Assembly (NCBI GenBank): GCA_036401215.1
Contig: DASWVN010000164.1
Location: 9,611 to 73,610, forward strand
Origin: Vicinamibacterales bacterium
GTDB lineage: Bacteria > Acidobacteriota > Vicinamibacteria > Vicinamibacterales > 2-12-FULL-66-21
Direction: 5' to 3'
Length of the DNA stretch: 64,000 nucleotides
In this document: positions 1 through 32,351 of the stretch, in pieces
Numbering within the stretch: the stretch's first letter is position 1
Layout of the letters: each line of letters starts with the position of its first letter
Translations under genes and position numbers: made by a program
Notes under the pieces: model-generated
Told to the model about the DNA's origin: nothing
Seen by the model: only the letters and a program-made list of their open reading frames with translations
Databases searched by the model: none

Positions 1-850
1 CGTCGAGGGGCGGCGAGACAACTCCCGTGCCCTTGCACGCCGCGCAGCTGATGTCGACCTCCGCGCTGGGTTCCGTGTAGGGAAAGAAGCTCGGACGGAA
101 GCGCACGCTGCGGTCCTGCCCGAACAGCTCCTTCACGAAGATGTCCAGCGTGCCTTTGAGGTCCGCCAGCGTGACGTTCTCGCCGACGACCAGTCCTTCG
201 ACCTGCGTGAACATCGGCGTGTGCGTGAGATCGAGGTTGTCGCGGCGATACACGCGTCCGGGTGCGATCAGGCGCACCGGCGGCTGATGCTGTTCCATGT
301 AGCGGATCTGCATGCCGGAGGTGTGCGTCCGCAGCAAGGTCGCCGGGTTGCCGGCCGAGGAGCGGACGGGGGAGGACAGGTACAGCGTGTCCTGCATGTC
401 CCGCGCGGGATGCTCGGGCGGCATGTTGAGCGCTTCGAAGTTGTGGTAGTCGTCCTCGAGCTCGGGGCCTTCGATGACGAGGAACCCCATGCGCGTGAAG
501 ATCTGCTCGATCCGTTCGCGCAGGATCGTCAGCGGATGGCGATGCCCCGCGAAGGGTCTGCGTCCGGGCAGCGTGACGTCGACGGCCCCCTTGGGCCGCT
601 TCGTCGCCGCGGCCGCCGCCAGGCGGGCGTCGAGGTCGGTCTCGATTTCCTGTTTGAGTGCGTTGGCGAGCTGCCCGAGGCGCGGGCGTTCTTCCGGCGG
701 AGCCGCGCCGAGGTTCTTGAGCAGCCCTGAGACGAGCCCGCCCTTGCGCGCGAGGTACCGGTGGCGCACGGCGCGCAACTCGGCCTCGCTCGCCGCGGAC
801 GCGAGATCGGCCTTGAACTGGGACCTGAGGGAGTCGATCGAATCAGACAT
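1..850 (-). CDS. pheS: Phenylalanine--tRNA ligase alpha subunit (N-terminal ~283 codons; the C-terminus runs off the window start)
   Basis: Absent from the ORF track because it is truncated. My reverse translation from the ATG at 850 gives MSDSIDSLRSQF...FEALNMPPEHPARDMQDT...LLRTHTS...GRVYRRD...RFRPSFFPYTEPSAEVD, which are PheS class II motifs. It lies downstream of rplT, as in the conserved cluster. Confidence 0.9.
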   Translation of the reverse strand, partial: MSDSIDSLRSQFKADLASAASEAELRAVRHRYLARKGGLVSGLLKNLGAAPPEERPRLGQLANALKQEIETDLDARLAAAAATKRPKGAVDVTLPGRRPFAGHRHPLTILRERIEQIFTRMGFLVIEGPELEDDYHNFEALNMPPEHPARDMQDTLYLSSPVRSSAGNPATLLRTHTSGMQIRYMEQHQPPVRLIAPGRVYRRDNLDLTHTPMFTQVEGLVVGENVTLADLKGTLDIFVKELFGQDRSVRFRPSFFPYTEPSAEVDISCAACKGTGVVSPPLD

Positions 851-893
851 GGAAGATGGCCAATTTACCATCTTCCATTTTCCATTTTCAGCT

Positions 894-1289
894 TCAGGCG
901 TGCGCTTCAGTGGAAGCCTTCGCGCGCGTTACGGGCGGCTTGGCCTCGGCGGCGACCTGCGCGAGCTTCGCGAATGCGGCGGGCGAGGTGACGGCGATAT
1001 CGGCGAGCTGCTTGCGGTCGAGCGTGTTGCCCGCGGCGCGGAGGCCGGCAATCAGCTGACCGTAGGTCAGGCCGTTTTCGCGGGCGGCCGCGTTGATGCG
1101 GACGACCCACAGCCGGCGGAAGTCCCGCTTCTTGCGGCGGCGGCCGACGTACGCGTACTTCAGCGCGGTATCGACCGACTCCTTCGCGGCGCGATAGAGC
1201 TTGCTCTTGGTCTGGTAAAAGCCTTTGGCGCGTGCAAGCAGCTTCTTGCGCTTCGCCCGGCGGACATTTCCTCTTTTTACTCGCGGCAT
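894..1289 (-). CDS. rplT: 50S ribosomal protein bL20
   Basis: ORF track: [25 protein letters not shown]..., a classic L20 N-terminus. An AAGGA Shine-Dalgarno lies about 7 nt upstream. Confidence 0.95.
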
Positions 1290-1305
1290 CTTCGTGTCCT
1301 TACGC

Positions 1306-1500
1306 GGGTAGGGAACAGGGATCAGGGGACAGGGATCAGGGAACAGGGGACAGGGATCAGGGAACAGGGAACAGGGATGGGCTCACGTGAGACGCCCCCG
1401 CCGCTGTTCGTGCCTGCTTTCTGATCCCTACTCCCCGATCCCTACTTCCCGATCCCTGATCCCTGATCCCTACTCCCTGATCCCTGATCCCTGTTCCCTA
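1306..1500. repeat. Inverted array of GGGAWCA-type heptamers (G-rich arm 1306-1381, spacer 1382-1421, C-rich arm 1422-1500)
   Basis: Read directly. About 10 heptamer units per arm. The outer 19 nt TAGGGAACAGGGATCAGGG (1309-1327) is the exact reverse complement of 1482-1500. The spacer begins with the self-complementary CTCACGTGAG. Confidence 0.9.
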
Positions 1501-1692
1501 GTTGGGCAGCATCGTCCGCAGCTTCGCCTCGTCGGCGGCTGCCACGAGCGTCGTCCCCTTCAGCCCGCGCTTGCGGCTGCGGGTCTTGCTCGTGAGGATG
1601 TGGCGCTTGAACGCGCTGCTCCGCTTGAACTTTCCGGTGCCCGTCTTCTTGAACCGCTTGGCGGCCCCTCTATGCGTCTTCAGTTTCGGCAT
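1498..1692 (-). CDS. rpmI: 50S ribosomal protein bL35
   Basis: ORF track: [24 protein letters not shown]. An AAGGA SD lies upstream. Position between infC and rplT. Confidence 0.95.
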
Positions 1693-1706
1693 GACTGTCC
1701 TTCGGT

Positions 1707-1850
1707 GGTCCGGCTTCCGGCTCTGGGCTCCAGGCTTCCGGCCAGAAACAACCCTCTATTATCGCCTGAGATAGGGGGTCTTTGGCAACTGCCCGTCACG
1801 AAAGCAGAAAACCTCGGCCAAAAGCCGGAAGCCCAAAGCCTGCAGCCGGA
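1707..1850. repeat. Inverted repeat of GCCGGAAGC-type units (arms 1707-1743 and 1815-1850) with an inner hairpin
   Basis: GGTCCGGCTTCCGGCTCTGGGCTCCAGGCTTCCGGCC pairs against GGCCAAAAGCCGGAAGCCCAAAGCCTGCAGCCGGA. Inner stem CCCTCTAT/ATAGGGGG. Confidence 0.8.
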
Positions 1851-1856
1851 TATGGG

Positions 1857-2441
1857 CTACTCCGCTCCCGCCGGCCGTTCCTCGCGGGGTTTGGGCGCCG
1901 ATTTGCGGCTGGCCCGCCCCGAGAGGATCGTGTGCATCTGGTTGCCTTCCTGGCGAGGCTGCGTTTCCGCGATCGCCACGTCGCTCAGTTCCTCGATCAG
2001 CCGCTCCAGGATCCGTCGGCCGATCTCGGGATGGGCCATCTCGCGGCCGCGGAAGAAGATGGTCGCCTTGACCTTGTCCCCTTCAGCCAGGAACCGCTCG
2101 ATGTGCTTTTTCTTGAACTGGTAGTCGTGCTCGTCGACCTTGGGCCGGAACTTGATTTCCTTGACCTCGATGACCTTCTGGTGCTTCTTGGCCGTCCGGG
2201 CGCGCTTCTGCTCCTGGTACTGATACCGGCCGTAGTCCATGATCCGGCACACGGGCGGATTCGCCGTGGCTGCGATCTCGACGAGGTCGAGCCCCTTGCT
2301 GCGCGCGATGGCGAGCGCCTGCTGGGGCGGCATGATCCCGAGCTGCTGGCCGGTGTCGTCGATGACGCGCACCTCCCGCACCCTGATCCGTTCGTTGACC
2401 CTGACGCGGTCGTCGCGCCTGGGGCTGCGGTCGTAAGCGAT
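1857..2441 (-). CDS. infC: Translation initiation factor IF-3, probable non-canonical ATC (AUC) start
   Basis: The ORF track gives 1857..2381 from an internal GTG ([16 protein letters not shown]...). The frame stays open upstream and encodes [26 protein letters not shown], the usual IF-3 N-terminal segment. GGAGG (complement of 2447-2451) is followed after 5 nt by ATC (complement of 2439-2441). Confidence 0.75.
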
Positions 2442-2518
2442 AACTACCTCCTGAAAAAAGTCCGAACTCTGGACGCCGGATTCAGAACGGACGAATGACG
2501 CTCCATGGTTGTTCCACG

Positions 2519-4486
2519 CTAGGCGAACTGAACGTCTTCCTTCTTGCCGTCCTTCGTCTCCGACGTTTTGGCGGCGATCTCGCGCTGTGCTCCCTCGATG
2601 AACTCCGCCAGGCCGCGCGAACCCAGGTCGCCGGCGACCCGGCTGCGCACGGCCACTTTACCTTCGGTGGCCTCGCGATCCCCGATCACCAGCATATAGG
2701 GGATCTTCTGGAGTTGGGCCTCCCGAATCTTGAAGCCGATCTTCTCCTGCCGGTCGTCGAGCTCGGCCCGCAACCCGGCGGCCTCGAGCTGCGCCAGCAC
2801 GGTGCGCCCGTATTCGATGTGACGGTCGGCGATCGGCAGCACCGTCACCTGGACGGGCGCGAGCCACAGCGGGAACGCTCCCGCGTAATGCTCGATCAGC
2901 AGCGCGATGAACCGCTCGAAGCTGCCGAAGATCGCCCGATGAATGACGACGGGCGTGTGCTCCGCGTTGTCGGCGCCGATGTACTTCAGGCCGAAACGCT
3001 GCGGCATCTGGTAATCGAGCTGGATCGTGGCGCACTGCCACTTGCGGCCGATCGCGTCGGTGATGTCGAAGTCGATCTTCGGCCCGTAGAACGCGCCATC
3101 CCCCTCGTTGACCGAGTAGACCTGTCCGGCAGCCTCGAGCGCCTGCTTCAACGCCGCCTCGGCGTGGTCCCACGTCGAGATCTCGCCGAGGAACTCCGCC
3201 GGCCGCGTGGACAGCTTGGCTTCGTACTGTAAACCGAAGTCGCGGTACACGCGCTGCACCAGACGCAGCAGCGCCTCGACCTCCTCCGCGATCTGGTCCT
3301 CGGTCACGAAGCAATGCGCATCGTCCTGCGAGAACTGGCGGACGCGGGTGAGCCCGGTCAGCACGCCGGAGGCTTCATTCCGATGCAGCGGCGTCTGCTC
3401 GTGGAAGCGCAGCGGCAGGTCCTTGTAGCTGCGGACCTCGCTTGCGAAGACGAGCATGTGGCCCGGGCAGTTCATCGCCTTGACGCCCATCTCCTCGCCG
3501 TCGCGCCCTTCCACGAGGAACATGTTCTCGCGGTAGTGCTGCCAGTGGCCGGACGTCTCCCACAACGCCTTGTTGTAGATGAGCGGCGTCTTCAGTTCCA
3601 CGTAGCCGGCGGGGAAGAGCACTTCCCGCATGTAGTCGGCGAGCGTGTTGTAGAGCGTCGCACCCTTGGCGAGCCAGAACGTCGCGCCCGGCGCCCACGG
3701 GTGGAACGTGAACAGGCCGATGTCCTTGCCGACGCGCCGGTGATCGCGCTTCTTCGCCTCCTCGAGGCGATGCAGGTGCGCCTGGAGGTCCTTGTCGCTG
3801 AAGAACGCCGTGCCGTAGATGCGCTGCATCGGCTGGTTCTTCGCGTCACCCTTCCAGTACGCGTTCGACGTGCTGAGCAGCTTGAACGCCTTCAGCCGTC
3901 CGCTCGACGGCACGTGCGGCCCCACGCAGAAGTCGACGAAGGTCTCGCGGTCCTTGATCGTGTAGCAGGACACCGCGCGCTGGCCTTCGGTCTTCTCCTC
4001 GATCAGCTGCACCTTCAGCGGCTCGCCCCGATCCCCGAAGAAGCGGATCGCCTCGCTCCGGTCCCACATCTGTCGTTCGTAGGGGAGGTCCTGCGACGCC
4101 AGCTCCTTCATCTTCTTCTCGATCGCGTCCAGATCTTCCGGAACGAATGGACGATCGACGACGAAGTCGTAGAAGAAGCCTTCATCGGTCGCGGGCCCGA
4201 TGCCGCACTGCGCACCGGGGAAGAGGTTCGTGACCGCTGCGGCGAGCAGATGCGCCGTGCTGTGACGATAGACGTGCAGTCCCTCGGGGCTGTCCGGCGT
4301 GATGATGCGCACGCGCGCGTCCTGCGCGAGTGGATAGGTGAGATCGACGAGACGGTCGTCGACCTCCGCGGCAAGCGCCGCCTTCGCCAGACGAGGCGAG
4401 ATGGATGCCGCCAGCGCTCCCGGGGTCGTCCCGGCGGGCACGCGACGGCTGGAGCCATCGGGCAACGTGACGGTGATCTCTTGCAT
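2519..4486 (-). CDS. thrS: Threonine--tRNA ligase
   Basis: The ORF track frame is 2519..4627. I place the start at Met48 ([16 protein letters not shown], the canonical TGS-domain start), because the longer ORF would overlap the tRNA gene. Class II motifs are present throughout. Confidence 0.93.
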
Positions 4487-4504
4487 GGGGAGGGCTGGCT
4501 CGCC

Positions 4505-4536
4505 TTGCGGATACGTTCCTATCGCGGATGCGTTCC
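4505..4536 (-). promoter_or_regulatory. Duplicated 15-mer in the thrS 5' leader (GGAACGCAUCCGCGA / GGAACGUAUCCGCAA on the transcript)
   Basis: Plus-strand 4522-4536 and 4505-4519, with a 17-nt period, 19 nt upstream of the thrS ATG. Confidence 0.35.
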
Positions 4537-4582
4537 TGTTAATGGAGTCCTTCAGATTGTCGACCGGCATCGCCGAGTCGAG

Positions 4583-4659
4583 TGGTAGGCACGGGCAGAC
4601 TCGAACTGCCGACCTCCTGCGTGTCAAGCAGGCGCTCTAACCAACTGAGCTACGCGCCT
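4583..4659 (-). tRNA. tRNA-Val (anticodon GAC), CCA encoded
   Basis: Reverse complement reads AGGCGCGTAGCTCAGTTGGTTAGAGCGCCTGCTTGACACGCAGGAGGTCGGCAGTTCGAGTCTGCCCGTGCCTACCA. It has a 7-bp acceptor stem (one G-U), a D-loop AGCTCAGTTGGTTAGAGC, an anticodon loop TTGACAC and a T-arm GGCAG-TTCGAGT-CTGCC. Confidence 0.93.
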
Positions 4660-4692
4660 ATGTTCTGAAAACACTGGCTTGCCGGAACGAAG

Positions 4693-4701
4693 ATTCTAAC
4701 A
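4693..4701 (-). promoter_or_regulatory. Possible extended -10 (TGtTAGAAT) for tRNA-Val/thrS transcription
   Basis: The reverse complement of 4693-4701 reads TGTTAGAAT, about 34 nt upstream of the tRNA 5' end. No clear -35. Confidence 0.3.
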
Positions 4702-4708
4702 CAGGCCC

Positions 4709-5926
4709 TTACTGGTGCTGCTGGACCAGGATGGTGCTCTTTGCGTGTTTGACGGCGGCATCGAGCATCGGGTCCGACTCGGGGAGCGCCGCGCCGAACT
4801 CGACGTCGGGCTCGGCGACCGGAACATCCGGTTCGAGACCCTTGCCGTGGATCAGCTCACCGCCCGGCGTGTAGTAGCGGAGGTGGGTCAGCCAGAGACC
4901 GCGGTTCTCAGGGAGCTTCACGAGCTTCTGCTCGGCGGCGCGGCCGATGGTGTGTTCACCAATGAGGTCGGCGCGCTTGTTGCCGTCGAGCGCCGCCGCG
5001 AAGACTTCGGCCGCACCGGACGATCCCGCGCTCACGAGCACCTGGGCCGGGAGCGTAATCACGCCGTCACCGGCCTTCGCCGGCATCGACTGCGGGATCG
5101 CTTCCTTCTGGCCTTCGGCCGGACGGCCGGCCGTCGCGGTCACGGTTCCGGTCTTGATGAAGAGGCGGGCCGTCTCGATCCCGTGCTCGATCGCCCCTTC
5201 GGCCGTGCGGCGCACGTCGATCAGCAGCGTCTTCGCCCCCTGCCGTTCGAGATCGGCGGCGTGCTTCTTCACATCGGCGGCCGTCGATGGAGAGAAGAGC
5301 GGGATCCTGATATACCCGACCTCCGGCTCGAGCATCTTTGCCGTGACTGGAGGAGTCGAGCGGGCCGCTCGGACCAGCGTCACTTCGTGGGGATCCGCCG
5401 CGTTGCCGCGGATGATCGTCAGCGCCACCTTCGAACCCGGCTCGCCGCGCAACAGGCGCGAGCCTTCGAACACCGACATGTCACGGGTCGAGCGGCCGTC
5501 GATCGCACGGACGTAATCGCCCGTCTGAAGCCCCGCTTCCGCCGCCGGAGATCCATCCCGCGTCGCGATGATCCGAAGGTAATACTGCCGTGTGAGCTGG
5601 ATGCCGAGATCTCCCGCGTCGGGCGCCTTGCCCGACTCGACCTCCTTGACCTGCTCGGGCGTGAGATAGGCGCTGTCCGGATCAAGCCCTTCGGCGAGCC
5701 CGCGCATCGCCCCTTCCATCACGCGGTCGACGTCGACTTCCTCGACGTAGTACGACATGACCAGGCCGATCACATCCTGGAAGACTCGCAGGTGGCGGAG
5801 CGATTCGTCGTCGGTGCCGGCTGACGCCTTGCCGAGCAGACCGCCGATCAGCACGAACGCGAGGACCGGCGTCGAGATCAACAGCACCGACAGGCGAGTC
5901 TTGAAAGTCATGATGGACGCAACCAT
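4709..5926 (-). CDS. S41 (C-terminal processing peptidase, CtpA/Prc-like) family protein with PDZ domain; the catalytic dyad appears substituted
   Basis: N-terminal membrane anchor, a PDZ-like GLQTGDYVRAIDG segment and an S41 core LVSAGSSGAAEVFAAALDGNKRADLIGEHTIGRAAEQ. An alternative start at 5911 makes an ATGA overlap with the upstream stop. Confidence 0.8.
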   Translation of the reverse strand: MVASIMTFKTRLSVLLISTPVLAFVLIGGLLGKASAGTDDESLRHLRVFQDVIGLVMSYYVEEVDVDRVMEGAMRGLAEGLDPDSAYLTPEQVKEVESGKAPDAGDLGIQLTRQYYLRIIATRDGSPAAEAGLQTGDYVRAIDGRSTRDMSVFEGSRLLRGEPGSKVALTIIRGNAADPHEVTLVRAARSTPPVTAKMLEPEVGYIRIPLFSPSTAADVKKHAADLERQGAKTLLIDVRRTAEGAIEHGIETARLFIKTGTVTATAGRPAEGQKEAIPQSMPAKAGDGVITLPAQVLVSAGSSGAAEVFAAALDGNKRADLIGEHTIGRAAEQKLVKLPENRGLWLTHLRYYTPGGELIHGKGLEPDVPVAEPDVEFGAALPESDPMLDAAVKHAKSTILVQQHQ

Positions 5927-7050
5927 TGTAAGGGATCGACCGGCTGCCCGTCGATCCGTAACTCGAAGTATACAGAGGGGTTGCCGGCTGTGTTCCGGCC
6001 CGACGTCCCGACGTTCGTCCCAGCCGCGACCCGGTCCCCTCTACTGACGCTGATGGTGGCGAGGTGGCCGTAAAGCGACACCGCGCCGCCGCCATGGTCC
6101 ACGATGACGAGCTGGCCGTAGGCGCTGAACGGACCGGCGTGGGTGACGACCCCCTCGTGAACAGCCGCGACCGGACGCCCTTCGGCGAGCGAAATTTCGA
6201 TCCCGTTGCGTGAAAAGTCGATGCCGGGCATCCGGCTCGACACTTCGCGTCCAAAGCGGCTGACGACGAACCCGTCGGCAGGCCAGGGAAGCGCCCCTTT
6301 GAACGGGCGCATCGGCAGGTAGACCGTCGACAGATCCTGGTTCTGCGCAATCGCGGACTGAAGCCGCAGATAGGCGGCGTCCAGCTCAGCCGCCAGCTCA
6401 GCAGCCAGATCGCGGCGGGTTTCGATCGACTTCACCAGTTCGGCGCGCGAGGCGACCGCGCGATCCAGCGCGCCGCGCGCCGCCGCCGCTTCCGTGCGAA
6501 GCGCGTCAGCCTGCCGCTTCCGGTCTTCGAGCGTGACCTTCTCCTGCTCGAGCGCCGCGATCGTGCGCGCATGGTTCTCGATGCGGGTCCGATCGAGGTG
6601 GTCGAGGACGGACGCGGTCCGGAGGGCGCGGCCGATCGATTGGAGGTCGTCGGCGTCGAGCAGGAGGCGCCAGTATCCCGCGCGCCCCATCTTGTACACG
6701 CGCACCAGGCGTTCGGCGACGTCGGGTTCCTGCTGGTCGGCGCGCGCGCGAAGTTCTTCCGCACGTGCCGTCGCGTCCGCGATCTGTTTCTGGATCTGCT
6801 CGAGTTCCGCGTCGATCCCGGCCAGTTCCTCGGTTTTGATCTGCCGCTCCAGTTCGAGCGTGCGCAGGTCGTTGAGGATCGACTTCTCCTGAGTCGAGAG
6901 CGAGGCCGCTTCCTTGCGCAACGCGGCCAGGCGATCGGCGATCCGGCGTGTGGCGTCGGCCGGACGTTCCTGGGCCGCAGGCGCGCCGCCCGTGGCGGCG
7001 GCGATCAGGGCAAGGACGATGAGCGTGGCGAGTCGGGGCGCAGGGCTCAC
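5908..7050 (-). CDS. EnvC-like murein hydrolase activator (coiled coil plus degenerate LytM/M23 domain)
   Basis: Signal peptide, a long coiled coil (LELERQIKTEELAGIDAELEQIQKQI...) and a C-terminal LytM domain IVDHGGGAVSLYGHL...PSVYFELRIDGQPVDP. The HxH motif is replaced by VYF, and the first His of HxxxD is replaced (RMPGID). Confidence 0.8.
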   Translation of the reverse strand: MSPAPRLATLIVLALIAAATGGAPAAQERPADATRRIADRLAALRKEAASLSTQEKSILNDLRTLELERQIKTEELAGIDAELEQIQKQIADATARAEELRARADQQEPDVAERLVRVYKMGRAGYWRLLLDADDLQSIGRALRTASVLDHLDRTRIENHARTIAALEQEKVTLEDRKRQADALRTEAAAARGALDRAVASRAELVKSIETRRDLAAELAAELDAAYLRLQSAIAQNQDLSTVYLPMRPFKGALPWPADGFVVSRFGREVSSRMPGIDFSRNGIEISLAEGRPVAAVHEGVVTHAGPFSAYGQLVIVDHGGGAVSLYGHLATISVSRGDRVAAGTNVGTSGRNTAGNPSVYFELRIDGQPVDPLQWLRPS

Positions 7051-19790: not shown

Positions 19791-19886
19791 CCTTCGACTC
19801 GCTGCGCTCGCTCAGGGCGAGCCCTTCGACTCGCTGCGCTCGCTCAGGGCGAGCCCTTCGACTCACTTCGTTCGCTCAGGGCAGGC
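19791..19886. repeat. Three tandem 32-nt units CCTTCGACTCGCTGCGCTCGCTCAGGGCGAGC
   Basis: Units at 19791-19822, 19823-19854 and 19855-19886 (the third diverged). Related 39-nt cores occur at 31057-31095 and 31131-31169, and a truncated copy near 27385-27405. Confidence 0.9.
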
Positions 19887-31027: not shown

Positions 31028-31199
31028 TCCCGGACCCGGACCCCGGACTCTGGACCCCACCCTTCGACTCGCTCCGCTCGCTCAGGGCAGGCACCCCGGA
31101 CCCCGGACCGCGGACCGCGGACCGCGGACCCCACCCTTCGACTCGCTCCGCTCGCTCAGGGCAGGCACCCCGGACCGCGGACCGCGGACCGCGGACAGC
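31028..31199. repeat. 74-bp tandem duplication made of a 39-nt core plus CGGACCS heptamer runs
   Basis: The core CCACCCTTCGACTCGCTCCGCTCGCTCAGGGCAGGCACC occurs at 31057-31095 and 31131-31169. CCGGACC / CGGACCG heptamers lie before, between and after the cores. Confidence 0.9.
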
Positions 31200-31211
31200 G
31201 ATAATGTCTCC

Positions 31212-32351
31212 ATGCGCGTGATGATCTCCTGTGGCGAGCCGTCCGGCGATTTGTACGCCGGCGCGCTGGCGTCCGAGATCCTGCGTCTCGAACCTTCCGC
31301 AACGATCACCGGCTTTGGCGGGGATCGCCTCGCCGCCGCGGGGGCCGGGCTGGTCGGCAACTTCAGCGGGCTGTCGGTAACGGGTCTGCTCGAGGTCGTC
31401 CGGCTGCTGCCACGAACCTACGCCACCTACAAGCGGCTGCTTGCCGACGCCGACACGATCCGCCCCGACGTCTTCGTGGCGATCGATTTCCCCGACTTCA
31501 ACTTCACCGTGGCTCGCGCGATGAAGAAGCGCGGGATCCCCGTCGTCTACTACATCAGCCCGCAGCTCTGGGCCTGGCGGGCCGGACGCATGAAGACGAT
31601 GCAGCGCATCGTCGATCGGATGCTGGTGATCTTTCCGTTCGAGGAGCAGATCTACCGCGCCGCCGGCGTCCCCGTCGAGTGGGTGGGACACCCGCTCTTC
31701 GACGTGCAGCCGGCGCAACAGGAGCGCGAGCCCTTTCTGCGCTCGCAGGACCTGGATCCCTCGAGGCCGGTCCTGGCGTTGCTGCCCGGCAGCCGCACGA
31801 ACGAACTCCGCGCGATTCTGCCAACACTGGCGCAGGCCGTTCCGGCCATCCGGGCGCGCGTCCCGCAGGCGCAGTTCCTCGTGGCGCGTGCGCCGCATCT
31901 TCGCGACGACTTGTTCACGCCCTTTCGCGAGCTGCAATCGAACGGCACGACGCTCCTGATGGTGAATGGACATGCCGACGATGTGCTGGCATCTTCGGAC
32001 GCGGCCATCGTGGCGTCGGGAACCGTCACGGTGCAGGCGGCGCTGCACGAGTGTCCAATGGTGGTCGTGTACCGGTTGTCGCCGCTGACGTACCGCGTCG
32101 GCAAGCCGTTCGTTCGCGTCGACACCTACGCGATGGCAAATCTCGTGGCCGGCCGGCGGATCGTCCCTGAGCTGATCCAGGACGGATTCACGCCGGAGGC
32201 CGCGACGGCCGAAGCGGTCCGGCTGCTGAGCGACCGTGCGTACGCCGATCGCGTGCGCGCCGATCTGCGCGAGGTCCGGAGCAAGCTCGGCGGACCCGGC
32301 GCGAGCCGCCGCGCGGCGGAGGCGGTGCTGGAAGTTGCTCGCGGGAAGTAG
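31212..32351 (+). CDS. lpxB: Lipid-A-disaccharide synthase
   Basis: MRVMISCGEPSGDLYAG...DFPDFNF...YYISPQLWAWR...GHPL are LpxB motifs. The ORF track frame 30834.. is trimmed to this ATG. Confidence 0.92.
   Translation: MRVMISCGEPSGDLYAGALASEILRLEPSATITGFGGDRLAAAGAGLVGNFSGLSVTGLLEVVRLLPRTYATYKRLLADADTIRPDVFVAIDFPDFNFTVARAMKKRGIPVVYYISPQLWAWRAGRMKTMQRIVDRMLVIFPFEEQIYRAAGVPVEWVGHPLFDVQPAQQEREPFLRSQDLDPSRPVLALLPGSRTNELRAILPTLAQAVPAIRARVPQAQFLVARAPHLRDDLFTPFRELQSNGTTLLMVNGHADDVLASSDAAIVASGTVTVQAALHECPMVVVYRLSPLTYRVGKPFVRVDTYAMANLVAGRRIVPELIQDGFTPEAATAEAVRLLSDRAYADRVRADLREVRSKLGGPGASRRAAEAVLEVARGK

Follow-up and report, generated by a model that had tools for sequence, protein, structure and literature searches.

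The rpmI–rplT junction

The stretch of DNA analysed here (the window, 64,000 nucleotides (nt) of contig DASWVN010000164.1) comes from a soil acidobacterium, a metagenome-assembled genome (MAG) of the Vicinamibacterales (Acidobacteriota; 5.76 Mb, 66% GC, 344 contigs), and begins within an operon whose gene order on the minus strand is thrS-infC-rpmI-rplT-pheS. The spacer between rpmI and rplT, which encode ribosomal proteins L35 and L20, covers 1290–1497 (208 nt) and is filled almost wholly by two inverted arrays of heptamers that are predicted to pair as one hairpin. Arrays were delimited with Tandem Repeats Finder (TRF), the two genes were taken from the open reading frame (ORF) list, and the arms are named by their place in the mRNA. 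The features are:

1498–1692, minus strand: rpmI, ribosomal protein L35 (64 amino acids; ORF list)
1421–1500, minus strand: 5′ arm in the mRNA, G-rich on the transcribed strand (TRF period 7 and period 14)
1482–1500, no strand assigned: right perfect 19-nt terminus, reverse complement of 1309–1327, ending in the complement of the rpmI TAG
1379–1420, minus strand: central non-repeat core or loop, read from the sequence, with no other copy in the genome (blastn-short)
1309–1378, minus strand: 3′ arm in the mRNA, C-rich on the transcribed strand (TRF period 7 and period 21)
1309–1327, no strand assigned: left perfect 19-nt terminus, TAGGGAACAGGGATCAGGG in plus-strand reading, pairing with 1482–1500
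1290–1308, minus strand: ribosome-binding block of rplT, CCCGCGTAAGGACACGAAG, outside the stem and unpaired in the minimum free energy (MFE) fold
894–1289, minus strand: rplT, ribosomal protein L20 (131 amino acids; ORF list)

The array at 1421–1499/1500 holds 11.3 copies of period 7 and is described better by period 14 (5.7 copies, 81% match), the 5′ arm being made of about 11 GGGAWCA or GGGAGTA units with a 14-nt higher-order period. That at 1310–1377/8 holds 9.7 copies of period 7 and is described better by period 21 (3.3 copies, 93% match); the roughly 10 units of this 3′ arm follow the 21-nt order GGGATCA GGGAACA GGGGACA on the plus strand. The best inverted repeat joins 1309–1377 to 1432–1500 (69 nt, 81% complementarity), and the core between the arms includes the palindrome CTCACGTGAG at 1382–1391, plus decayed units toward the mRNA 5′ arm. 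Eleven GGG tracts spaced by 4-nt loops lie in the 5′ arm (75 nt), which fits the G-quadruplex (G4) motif G3N4G3N4G3N4G3.

The hairpin reaches into the upstream gene, in that the rpmI stop TAG (1498–1500) supplies its first three paired bases and the mRNA arm begins UAG GGA ACA GGG. At the other side the 3′ edge of the stem ends 7 nt short of the Shine-Dalgarno (SD) sequence and 19 nt before the rplT ATG; past the C-rich arm (...CCCUA) the mRNA reads CCCGCGUAAGGACACGAAG and then the AUG of rplT. The SD, AAGGA (plus-strand TCCTT, 1297–1301), lies 7 nt upstream of the ATG and is unpaired in the MFE fold.

Folding of the minus-strand RNA 1285–1505 gave an MFE of −131.2 kcal/mol, against −88.0 ± 5.1 kcal/mol for 200 dinucleotide shuffles (z −8.49; 0/200 as stable), and the same sequence folded as single-stranded DNA gave −61.6 kcal/mol (z −7.8). 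The predicted structure is one long imperfect stem of about 60 paired positions (~61), in which the two 19-nt termini form an uninterrupted 19-bp outer helix. Given two such arrays, the chance of two identical terminal units was P ~0.024 (100,000 unit shuffles), and the identity of the outer units is thus only moderately unlikely. The hairpin is not an assembly artefact, since independent assemblies reproduce its arms and loop, one over the whole spacer (L111) and three in parts (L113, L120 and L123).

Most of this layout had been described in the original prediction, which was made from the letters alone. TRF and the inverted-repeat search agree with it on a spacer that is nearly all inverted heptamer array, on exactly complementary outermost 19 nt (at 1309–1327 and 1482–1500, not starting from 1306) and on the self-complementary CTCACGTGAG in the loop; the very stable minus-strand fold and an AAGGA of rplT left free beyond the left arm are likewise borne out.

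A promoter and terminator consensus scan of 800–2700 found neither a sigma-70-like promoter nor a U-tailed terminator-like site in the spacer. An intrinsic (Rho-independent) terminator was considered and rejected, as the GC-rich stem is followed by CCCGCGUAAGGACACGAAGAUG with no U-tract and the consensus scan is empty at the hairpin. An Rfam scan of 1–6000 at E ≤ 1 returned no L20_leader, only a tRNA upstream of thrS and matches to microRNA-like hairpins, which are spurious and far under the gathering scores.

Relatives and near-identical strains

The rplT product was matched in 39 of 41 related genomes, and tblastn shows that L35 keeps its C-terminus (...MLPN*) and the position of its stop in relatives with all kinds of spacer. 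Among 45 distinct Vicinamibacterales-type relatives the spacer ranges from 10 to 356 nt; it carries arrays of period 7 (or 8, 14 or 21) in 26 and is at most 20 nt long in nine. Most of the array-bearing spacers form hairpins, and about 20 words are used across them, including CGCTGAT, CCAGCYG, AAAGTTC, GGGCTAC, GGATGAC, TCATCAG and GGGCYAA. Three genomes of the same genus have "empty" junctions of 10–19 nt (e.g. TAA GAAGGAACGACG ATG), and contigs with an identical L35 protein carry other hairpins, built from GATCNCT (L114, 81 nt) or GGCTTTC (L115). The SD-containing block directly upstream of the rplT ATG (GCGTAAGGA / TAAAGAAGGA) is kept in the relatives throughout.

As the spacer arrays differ or are missing among relatives, the array is not a conserved regulatory element, and the hairpin is specific to this lineage, having been added recently in the gap that separates the stop codon from the ribosome-binding block. 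An abnormally long spacer produced by insertion had been proposed, with conservation in relatives named as the point that would speak against it; the array is not conserved, and the same-genus genomes have either 10–19 nt or quite different repeats at this place.

A different, REP-like element ending ...GAGCGAGTGGGGGTGGGGCCCCACGAGC was seen in four of the relatives' spacers (L084, L087, L098 and L100), the 356-nt spacer (L098) containing three tandem copies. In another relative (L096, genome G008) the rpmI frame looks shifted near its 3′ end, by an assembly error or a real frameshift, and its 10-nt spacer estimate is unreliable.

Variation at shorter distance was followed in contigs from other samples whose L35 or L20 is identical to that encoded here; their flanks are 98.4–100% identical to the window. 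One of these, from another MAG and spanning the spacer (L111), has the same 5′ arm and loop and a 3′ arm shorter by exactly 21 nt, which is one higher-order unit; this allele folds with the identical 19-bp closing stem at −104 kcal/mol. Another (L123) is longer by 7 nt, with one additional unit adjoining the loop, and the contigs of a single study (L112 and L117–L122) have unit substitutions near the termini, by which the closing stem would carry a mismatch. Similar strain variation is found in other arrays of the window, where short-read contigs regularly break inside the arrays.

Growth and loss of the arms therefore proceed by whole-unit slippage, in 7-nt units or 14/21-nt blocks, and independently in the two arms. 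Their different higher-order periods (21 vs 14) also indicate independent growth, not two copies of one terminal repeat. Because any 7-nt shift restores pairing, the stem survives insertions and deletions of units in one arm, and the arms act like a zipper that can re-register. For proteins encoded beside other arrays, exact look-ups gave no presence/absence alleles with clean boundaries, one protein being absent from the records and the short-read contigs for the others breaking inside the arrays. Scanning metagenome contigs for exact matches to the 3′ end of rpmI yielded one match, in an unrelated gene.

The heptamer arrays across the genome

In the whole assembly TRF reported 1064 rows of period 7, 532 of period 14 and 287 of period 21, with 39 of period 6 and 34 of period 8. 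After merging there are 991 period-7 arrays in 758 clusters. Gene context was taken from our own codon-score ORF caller (4753 genes, 86.5% coding). By these calls coding sequence takes up about 86% of the genome and 908 of the 991 arrays are intergenic. The share of spacers with an array is 27% where genes converge, 12% where they run in tandem and 6% where they diverge. Array starts lie within about 10 nt of stop codons, and positions less than 10 nt from start codons are rare; in 70 tandem-spacer hairpins the median distance is 4 nt from the stem base to the stop and ~32 nt from the stem end to the next start.

The word of the rpmI–rplT hairpin, GGGAWCA, was found in arrays on about 36 other contigs, and across the family the AGGGATC orientation is 20:4 after stops and 8:5, reversed, before starts. 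Four more GGGAWCA arrays on the same contig, at 32350, 38920, 52521 and 71657 (the last a contig coordinate), begin 1–2 nt inside the upstream stop, which by our gene calls matches the start of the rpmI hairpin itself. Within its class this hairpin has a typical position and is one of the larger members (~61 paired positions vs a median of 39), and an outer helix of at least 19 bp is found in only 6 of 129 hairpins. That a perfect closing stem might be a rule of the class was rejected, since outer helices are overall not longer than inner ones (median 3 vs 4 bp).

Inverted pairing and arm order are regular across the genome. Of 219 clusters with two or more arrays, 141 are inverted pairs of the same word, compared with 7% expected for random pairs, and only 6 are direct pairs; the genome thus has at least 141 inverted array pairs. 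The string (GGGAWCA)3GGG is matched 127 times in this genome and 0–4 times in each of 40 relatives, 12 congeners among them. The G arm comes first in the families AGGGATC (7/7), AACAGGG (3/3) and AAATGGT (10/10), the C arm in AAACTCC (33/33) and AACTCCC (10/10), and single arrays obey the same positional rule (e.g. AACTCCG 23:2). Stop-codon content, SD mimicry and C-richness like that of Rho utilisation (rut) sites were each considered as the source of arm order by inspection of the words, and no rule fits every family.

In one congener (G002) the near-identical word GGGATYA is matched about 200 times, and all ten of the paired loci listed put the C arm first; that genome's own rpmI–rplT hairpin (L089) also has the C arm first, as read from the spacer sequence. 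Since the two genomes use nearly the same word in opposite arm order, arm order is not a property of the word. Inversion of a hairpin leaves its arm order unchanged, and the rpmI–rplT hairpins of the two species are therefore not orthologous and arose independently.

Two further observations concern the arrays. Genes with strong native codon usage more often have an array abutting their stop codon (5.9% of genes in the lowest codon-score quintile, 15.1% in the highest), a trend for which residence time or expression could equally account. A 31–32-nt repeat with a short hairpin, CCTTCGACTCGCTGCGCTCGCTCAGGGCGAGC, stands in tandem at 19791–19882 and 31029–31200, at the latter place interleaved with ACCSCGG heptamers.

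Repeats of this kind have been described before. The GGGNATC-type heptamers of Rehm et al. 2015 (PMC4692102; GGGAATC in Xanthomonas, GGGGA(C/T)T in Nostoc PCC 7120) are dispersed by hundreds, intergenic, depleted between divergent genes and of unknown function. The G-rich strand is sense 0–50 nt from stop codons or overlapping them, the C-rich strand is sense upstream of starts, the repeats vary between close relatives at the same intergenic site, and inverted pairs capable of forming stem-loops are mentioned (PMC4692102). The present arrays are likewise head-to-tail 7-nt units of a GGG tract plus 4 nt (GGGAACA, GGGATCA, GGGGACA, GGGAGTA), occurring as 991 dispersed arrays with an intergenic bias and fewest between divergent genes; at the locus under study the G arm starts on the rpmI TAG, the C arm stops 19 nt upstream of the rplT ATG, and unit number and sequence vary at the same site (−21 nt, +7 nt, unit swaps). 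Judged by sequence, the hairpin shares every feature of that class that could be compared, and its G-rich strand carries a motif by which G4 may form. It differs in its host, a member of the Vicinamibacterales in the Acidobacteriota, in that GGGAWCA is one of more than 20 coexisting word families, many of them not G-rich, in arms of 10–12 units where four are preferred, in that most paired arrays form hairpins of 40–110 pairs, and in an arm order that is uniform per genome and reversed in a congener. The repeat class is already known, and what is new is the lineage and the notable locus.

The short tandemly repeated repetitive (STRR) sequences are tandem heptamers with several word families per genome, dispersed, intergenic and of unknown function, and are described mainly as direct arrays. 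Their words and phylum are different, and the arrays studied here form long inverted pairs anchored on stop codons. STRR heptamers of heterocystous cyanobacteria (Calothrix PCC 7601) are cited in PMC4692102; other heptamer repeats are TAACTGA in Beggiatoaceae (PMC4679880) and GGGACCG and MTYCTGA in Geobacter metallireducens (PMC2700814).

Probable origin of the hairpin and its likely effect on L20

We consider the feature to be a local member of the genome-wide heptanucleotide simple sequence repeat (SSR) arrays that fill dispensable intergenic parts in the Vicinamibacterales, with a probability of about 0.65. It belongs to the GGGAWCA word family, in which, in this species, the G-rich arm always comes first, and it is not a multicopy element with fixed ends. 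As the spacer shows no promoter-like or U-tailed terminator-like site, the hairpin would be co-transcribed within the infC-rpmI-rplT-pheS message. The RNA may then zip into the imperfect stem of about 60 pairs and loop out some 190 nt, by which the rpmI UAG and the free AAGGA/AUG of rplT would come about as close as in the empty relatives. On this account the insert would be tolerated with little or only quantitative consequence, and its effect on L20 synthesis is likely small. In E. coli the synthesis of L20 follows that of L35 by translational coupling (PMC1888825), and a stem that excludes itself may be the kind of insert that a translationally coupled junction can tolerate.

No observation requires a locus-specific regulatory role for the hairpin, and such a role is disfavoured because strains vary freely at this place. 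L20 synthesis may, as suggested earlier, depend on the structure, but there is no evidence for L20-specific control. A junction that in E. coli is the textbook example of tight L35–L20 coupling tolerates about 200 nt of hypervariable, strongly folding repeat DNA across a whole bacterial order, probably by the insert zipping itself aside, and the junction offers a natural test bed for separation of stop and start in sequence versus closeness in space.

Several points weigh against the reading of the hairpin as a passive array. The gene-context statistics rest on a rough codon-score ORF caller, and we infer, and do not observe, co-transcription, folding in vivo and neutrality. The 75-nt arm of G tracts could form G-quadruplexes instead of the duplex. 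A perfect closing stem of 19 bp is unusual for the class and may be due to a recent copying event or to selection acting on the stem. Lastly, three regularities go beyond plain local slippage, namely the species-specific word, the coupling of arrays into inverted pairs and the uniform arm order.

Together with the flip of polarity in the congener, these regularities point to a copying or founder process. The strongest alternative states that the arrays are not passive microsatellites and that an unknown genome-specific copying process installs a polar inverted pair of one word by stop codons, which we hold to be possible and clearly less probable than slippage of local arrays. On this account the rpmI–rplT junction would have been hit independently in sister species (GGGAWCA with the G arm first here, GGGATYA with the C arm first in G002), the arm order of each hairpin would agree with that of every other copy in its own genome, and in the perfect 19-bp termini the installed palindrome would have survived unaltered. 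A narrower form, somewhat less likely again, has the hairpin installed whole as a founder-derived non-autonomous cassette that spreads in the genome and lands by stop codons, slippage only remodelling the arms later. It would explain why (GGGAWCA)3GGG abounds in this genome and is nearly confined to it, why same-word pairs are so largely inverted, why even single arrays keep the order of their word family and why that order is opposite in all ten listed loci of G002; a perfect 19-bp closing helix could also be what is left of an original palindrome. Against copying stand the loops, unique in every copy examined, and the lack of shared ends or of any target duplication found. Strain differences so far consist of unit number, never of presence or absence, and neither machinery for a copying or founder process nor a candidate enzyme was found.

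REP (repetitive extragenic palindromic), BIME and REPIN elements are dispersed intergenic hairpin repeats found after gene 3′ ends or between convergent genes, co-transcribed and of fixed internal polarity; REPs have a conserved 20–40-nt sequence with a GTAG head and are mobilised by RAYT (REP-associated tyrosine, Y1) transposases. The arrays are similar in being intergenic hairpins after 3′ ends, and many array heads read GTAGGG, which recalls the GTAG head (GTA precedes 18 of 104 GGGAWCA array heads; GTAGGG is also an internal unit variant). They are unlike REPs in being tandem 7-mers, not a fixed palindrome, with hairpin ends that are unique in the genome. A REPIN-RAYT system was rejected, since the three PF01797 (Y1_Tnp) homologues in the genome all lack a heptamer array within 3 kb.

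For decades heptamer repeats have been known to be in excess in bacteria, and no explanation has been given. The view given by this lineage is unusually clear, with coexisting word families, species-specific words, strictly coupled arms and an arm order flipped between congeners, and these regularities together speak against slippage alone and equally against a property of the word; they make the origin of the repeats testable with long-read population data. Under the preferred reading the hairpin remains an ordinary member of an unusual repeat class whose origin is unexplained. The chief value of the locus is a clean strain-level slippage series at an essential operon junction combined with the polarity flip in a congener.

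A functional RNA of the operon would be the next alternative, in which the hairpin sets the L35:L20 ratio as an RNase III site, as a 3′-end stabiliser or as a switch between G4 and hairpin that exposes the C-rich arm to Rho or hides it. We regard this as unlikely. It would fit a very stable duplex placed directly after a stop codon, and a class that, like REP elements, favours gene 3′ ends and is scarce between divergent genes; REP elements stabilise upstream mRNA. A perfect helix of 19 bp is of sufficient length for RNase III, and the hairpin has one. G4 formation in vitro is known for GGGAATC repeats (PMC4692102), and the sequence of the G arm conforms to the G3N4 quadruplex motif. However, L35 and L20 are needed in equal amounts and their translation is coupled in E. 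coli (PMC1888825), and strains or species with an identical L35 differ in word or length or have nothing at all, which means that any function is generic and dispensable. No regulatory role was found for the Xanthomonas repeats by Rehm et al. (PMC4692102). Under the reading as a local SSR array, the long duplex could still also serve as an RNase III site, as a REP-like stem protecting the 3′ end, or as a duplex with which G4 competes.

Terminal inverted repeats (TIRs) with a TA target were the interpretation of the original prediction, and the hairpin would then be a miniature inverted-repeat transposable element (MITE) with 19-bp TIRs and a TA target-site duplication. The Correia/NEMIS MITEs of Neisseria have TIRs, a TA duplication and RNase III processing of the transcribed hairpin, and the present feature is like them an intergenic inverted-repeat hairpin of 100–200 nt, ended by TA and situated inside an operon transcript. 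The perfect 19-nt inverted termini and the empty spacer of some congeners would agree with such an element. We nevertheless find it very improbable. When the 19-mer was searched against the 5.76-Mb genome only the two ends of the hairpin matched, and a 52-nt core has no second genome copy. Both TAs are indeed present at the outer edges, but the right one (1499–1500) belongs to the rpmI TAG, and excision between the TAs would delete the stop. Six other full-length GGGAWCA hairpins were examined; their loops are unrelated, and TA at both ends is seen in none of them. TA stands before 23 of 104 GGGAWCA array heads, above chance, which is explained by the GTAGGG variant (internal GGGAGTA-GGGATCA) and by gene-abutting TAG stops. 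Arm periods of 21 and 14 and strain changes of 7 and 21 nt are those of slippage, not of cut-and-paste. In contrast to Correia/NEMIS elements there is no conserved multicopy sequence, target duplication or set of shared termini, and the arms are slipping microsatellites. The earlier interpretation is therefore partly supported, in that an insert-like addition with a free SD is present, but this addition is no TIR element with a TA target.

Least probable of all is autoregulation of rplT by an operator or attenuator that binds L20, although the hairpin lies inside the L20 operon and L20 operators are RNA structures (PMC1888825, PMC1865079), as no Rfam family rises above noise in 1–6000, the sequence varies even between near-identical strains and like hairpins follow hundreds of unrelated genes. 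L20 autoregulation is known from the pseudoknot in the E. coli rpmI leader, with coupling to rplT (PMC1888825), and from the L20 leader of B. subtilis (PMC1865079). The operon is the same, and an RNA structure near rpmI/rplT could in principle affect L20 output; those leaders, however, lie upstream of rpmI or infC and mimic 23S rRNA, whereas the hairpin is situated between rpmI and rplT, matches no Rfam family and is not conserved.

The neighbouring spacers of the operon are built in a similar manner. That between infC and rpmI (1693–1856), which is where an L20 operator would sit in E. coli, is also a repeat-built hairpin, with arms at ~1707–1742 and 1817–1850 of GCCGGAAGC-type words (RNA MFE −80 kcal/mol, z −4.2). 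The rplT–pheS spacer (851–893, 43 nt) has three to four GAAAATG units, and a 9–11-bp hairpin in it (GGAAGATGG/CCATCTTCC) adjoins the likely pheS ATG at 850. Short-period repeats are therefore present at all three operon junctions, infC–rpmI, rpmI–rplT and rplT–pheS.

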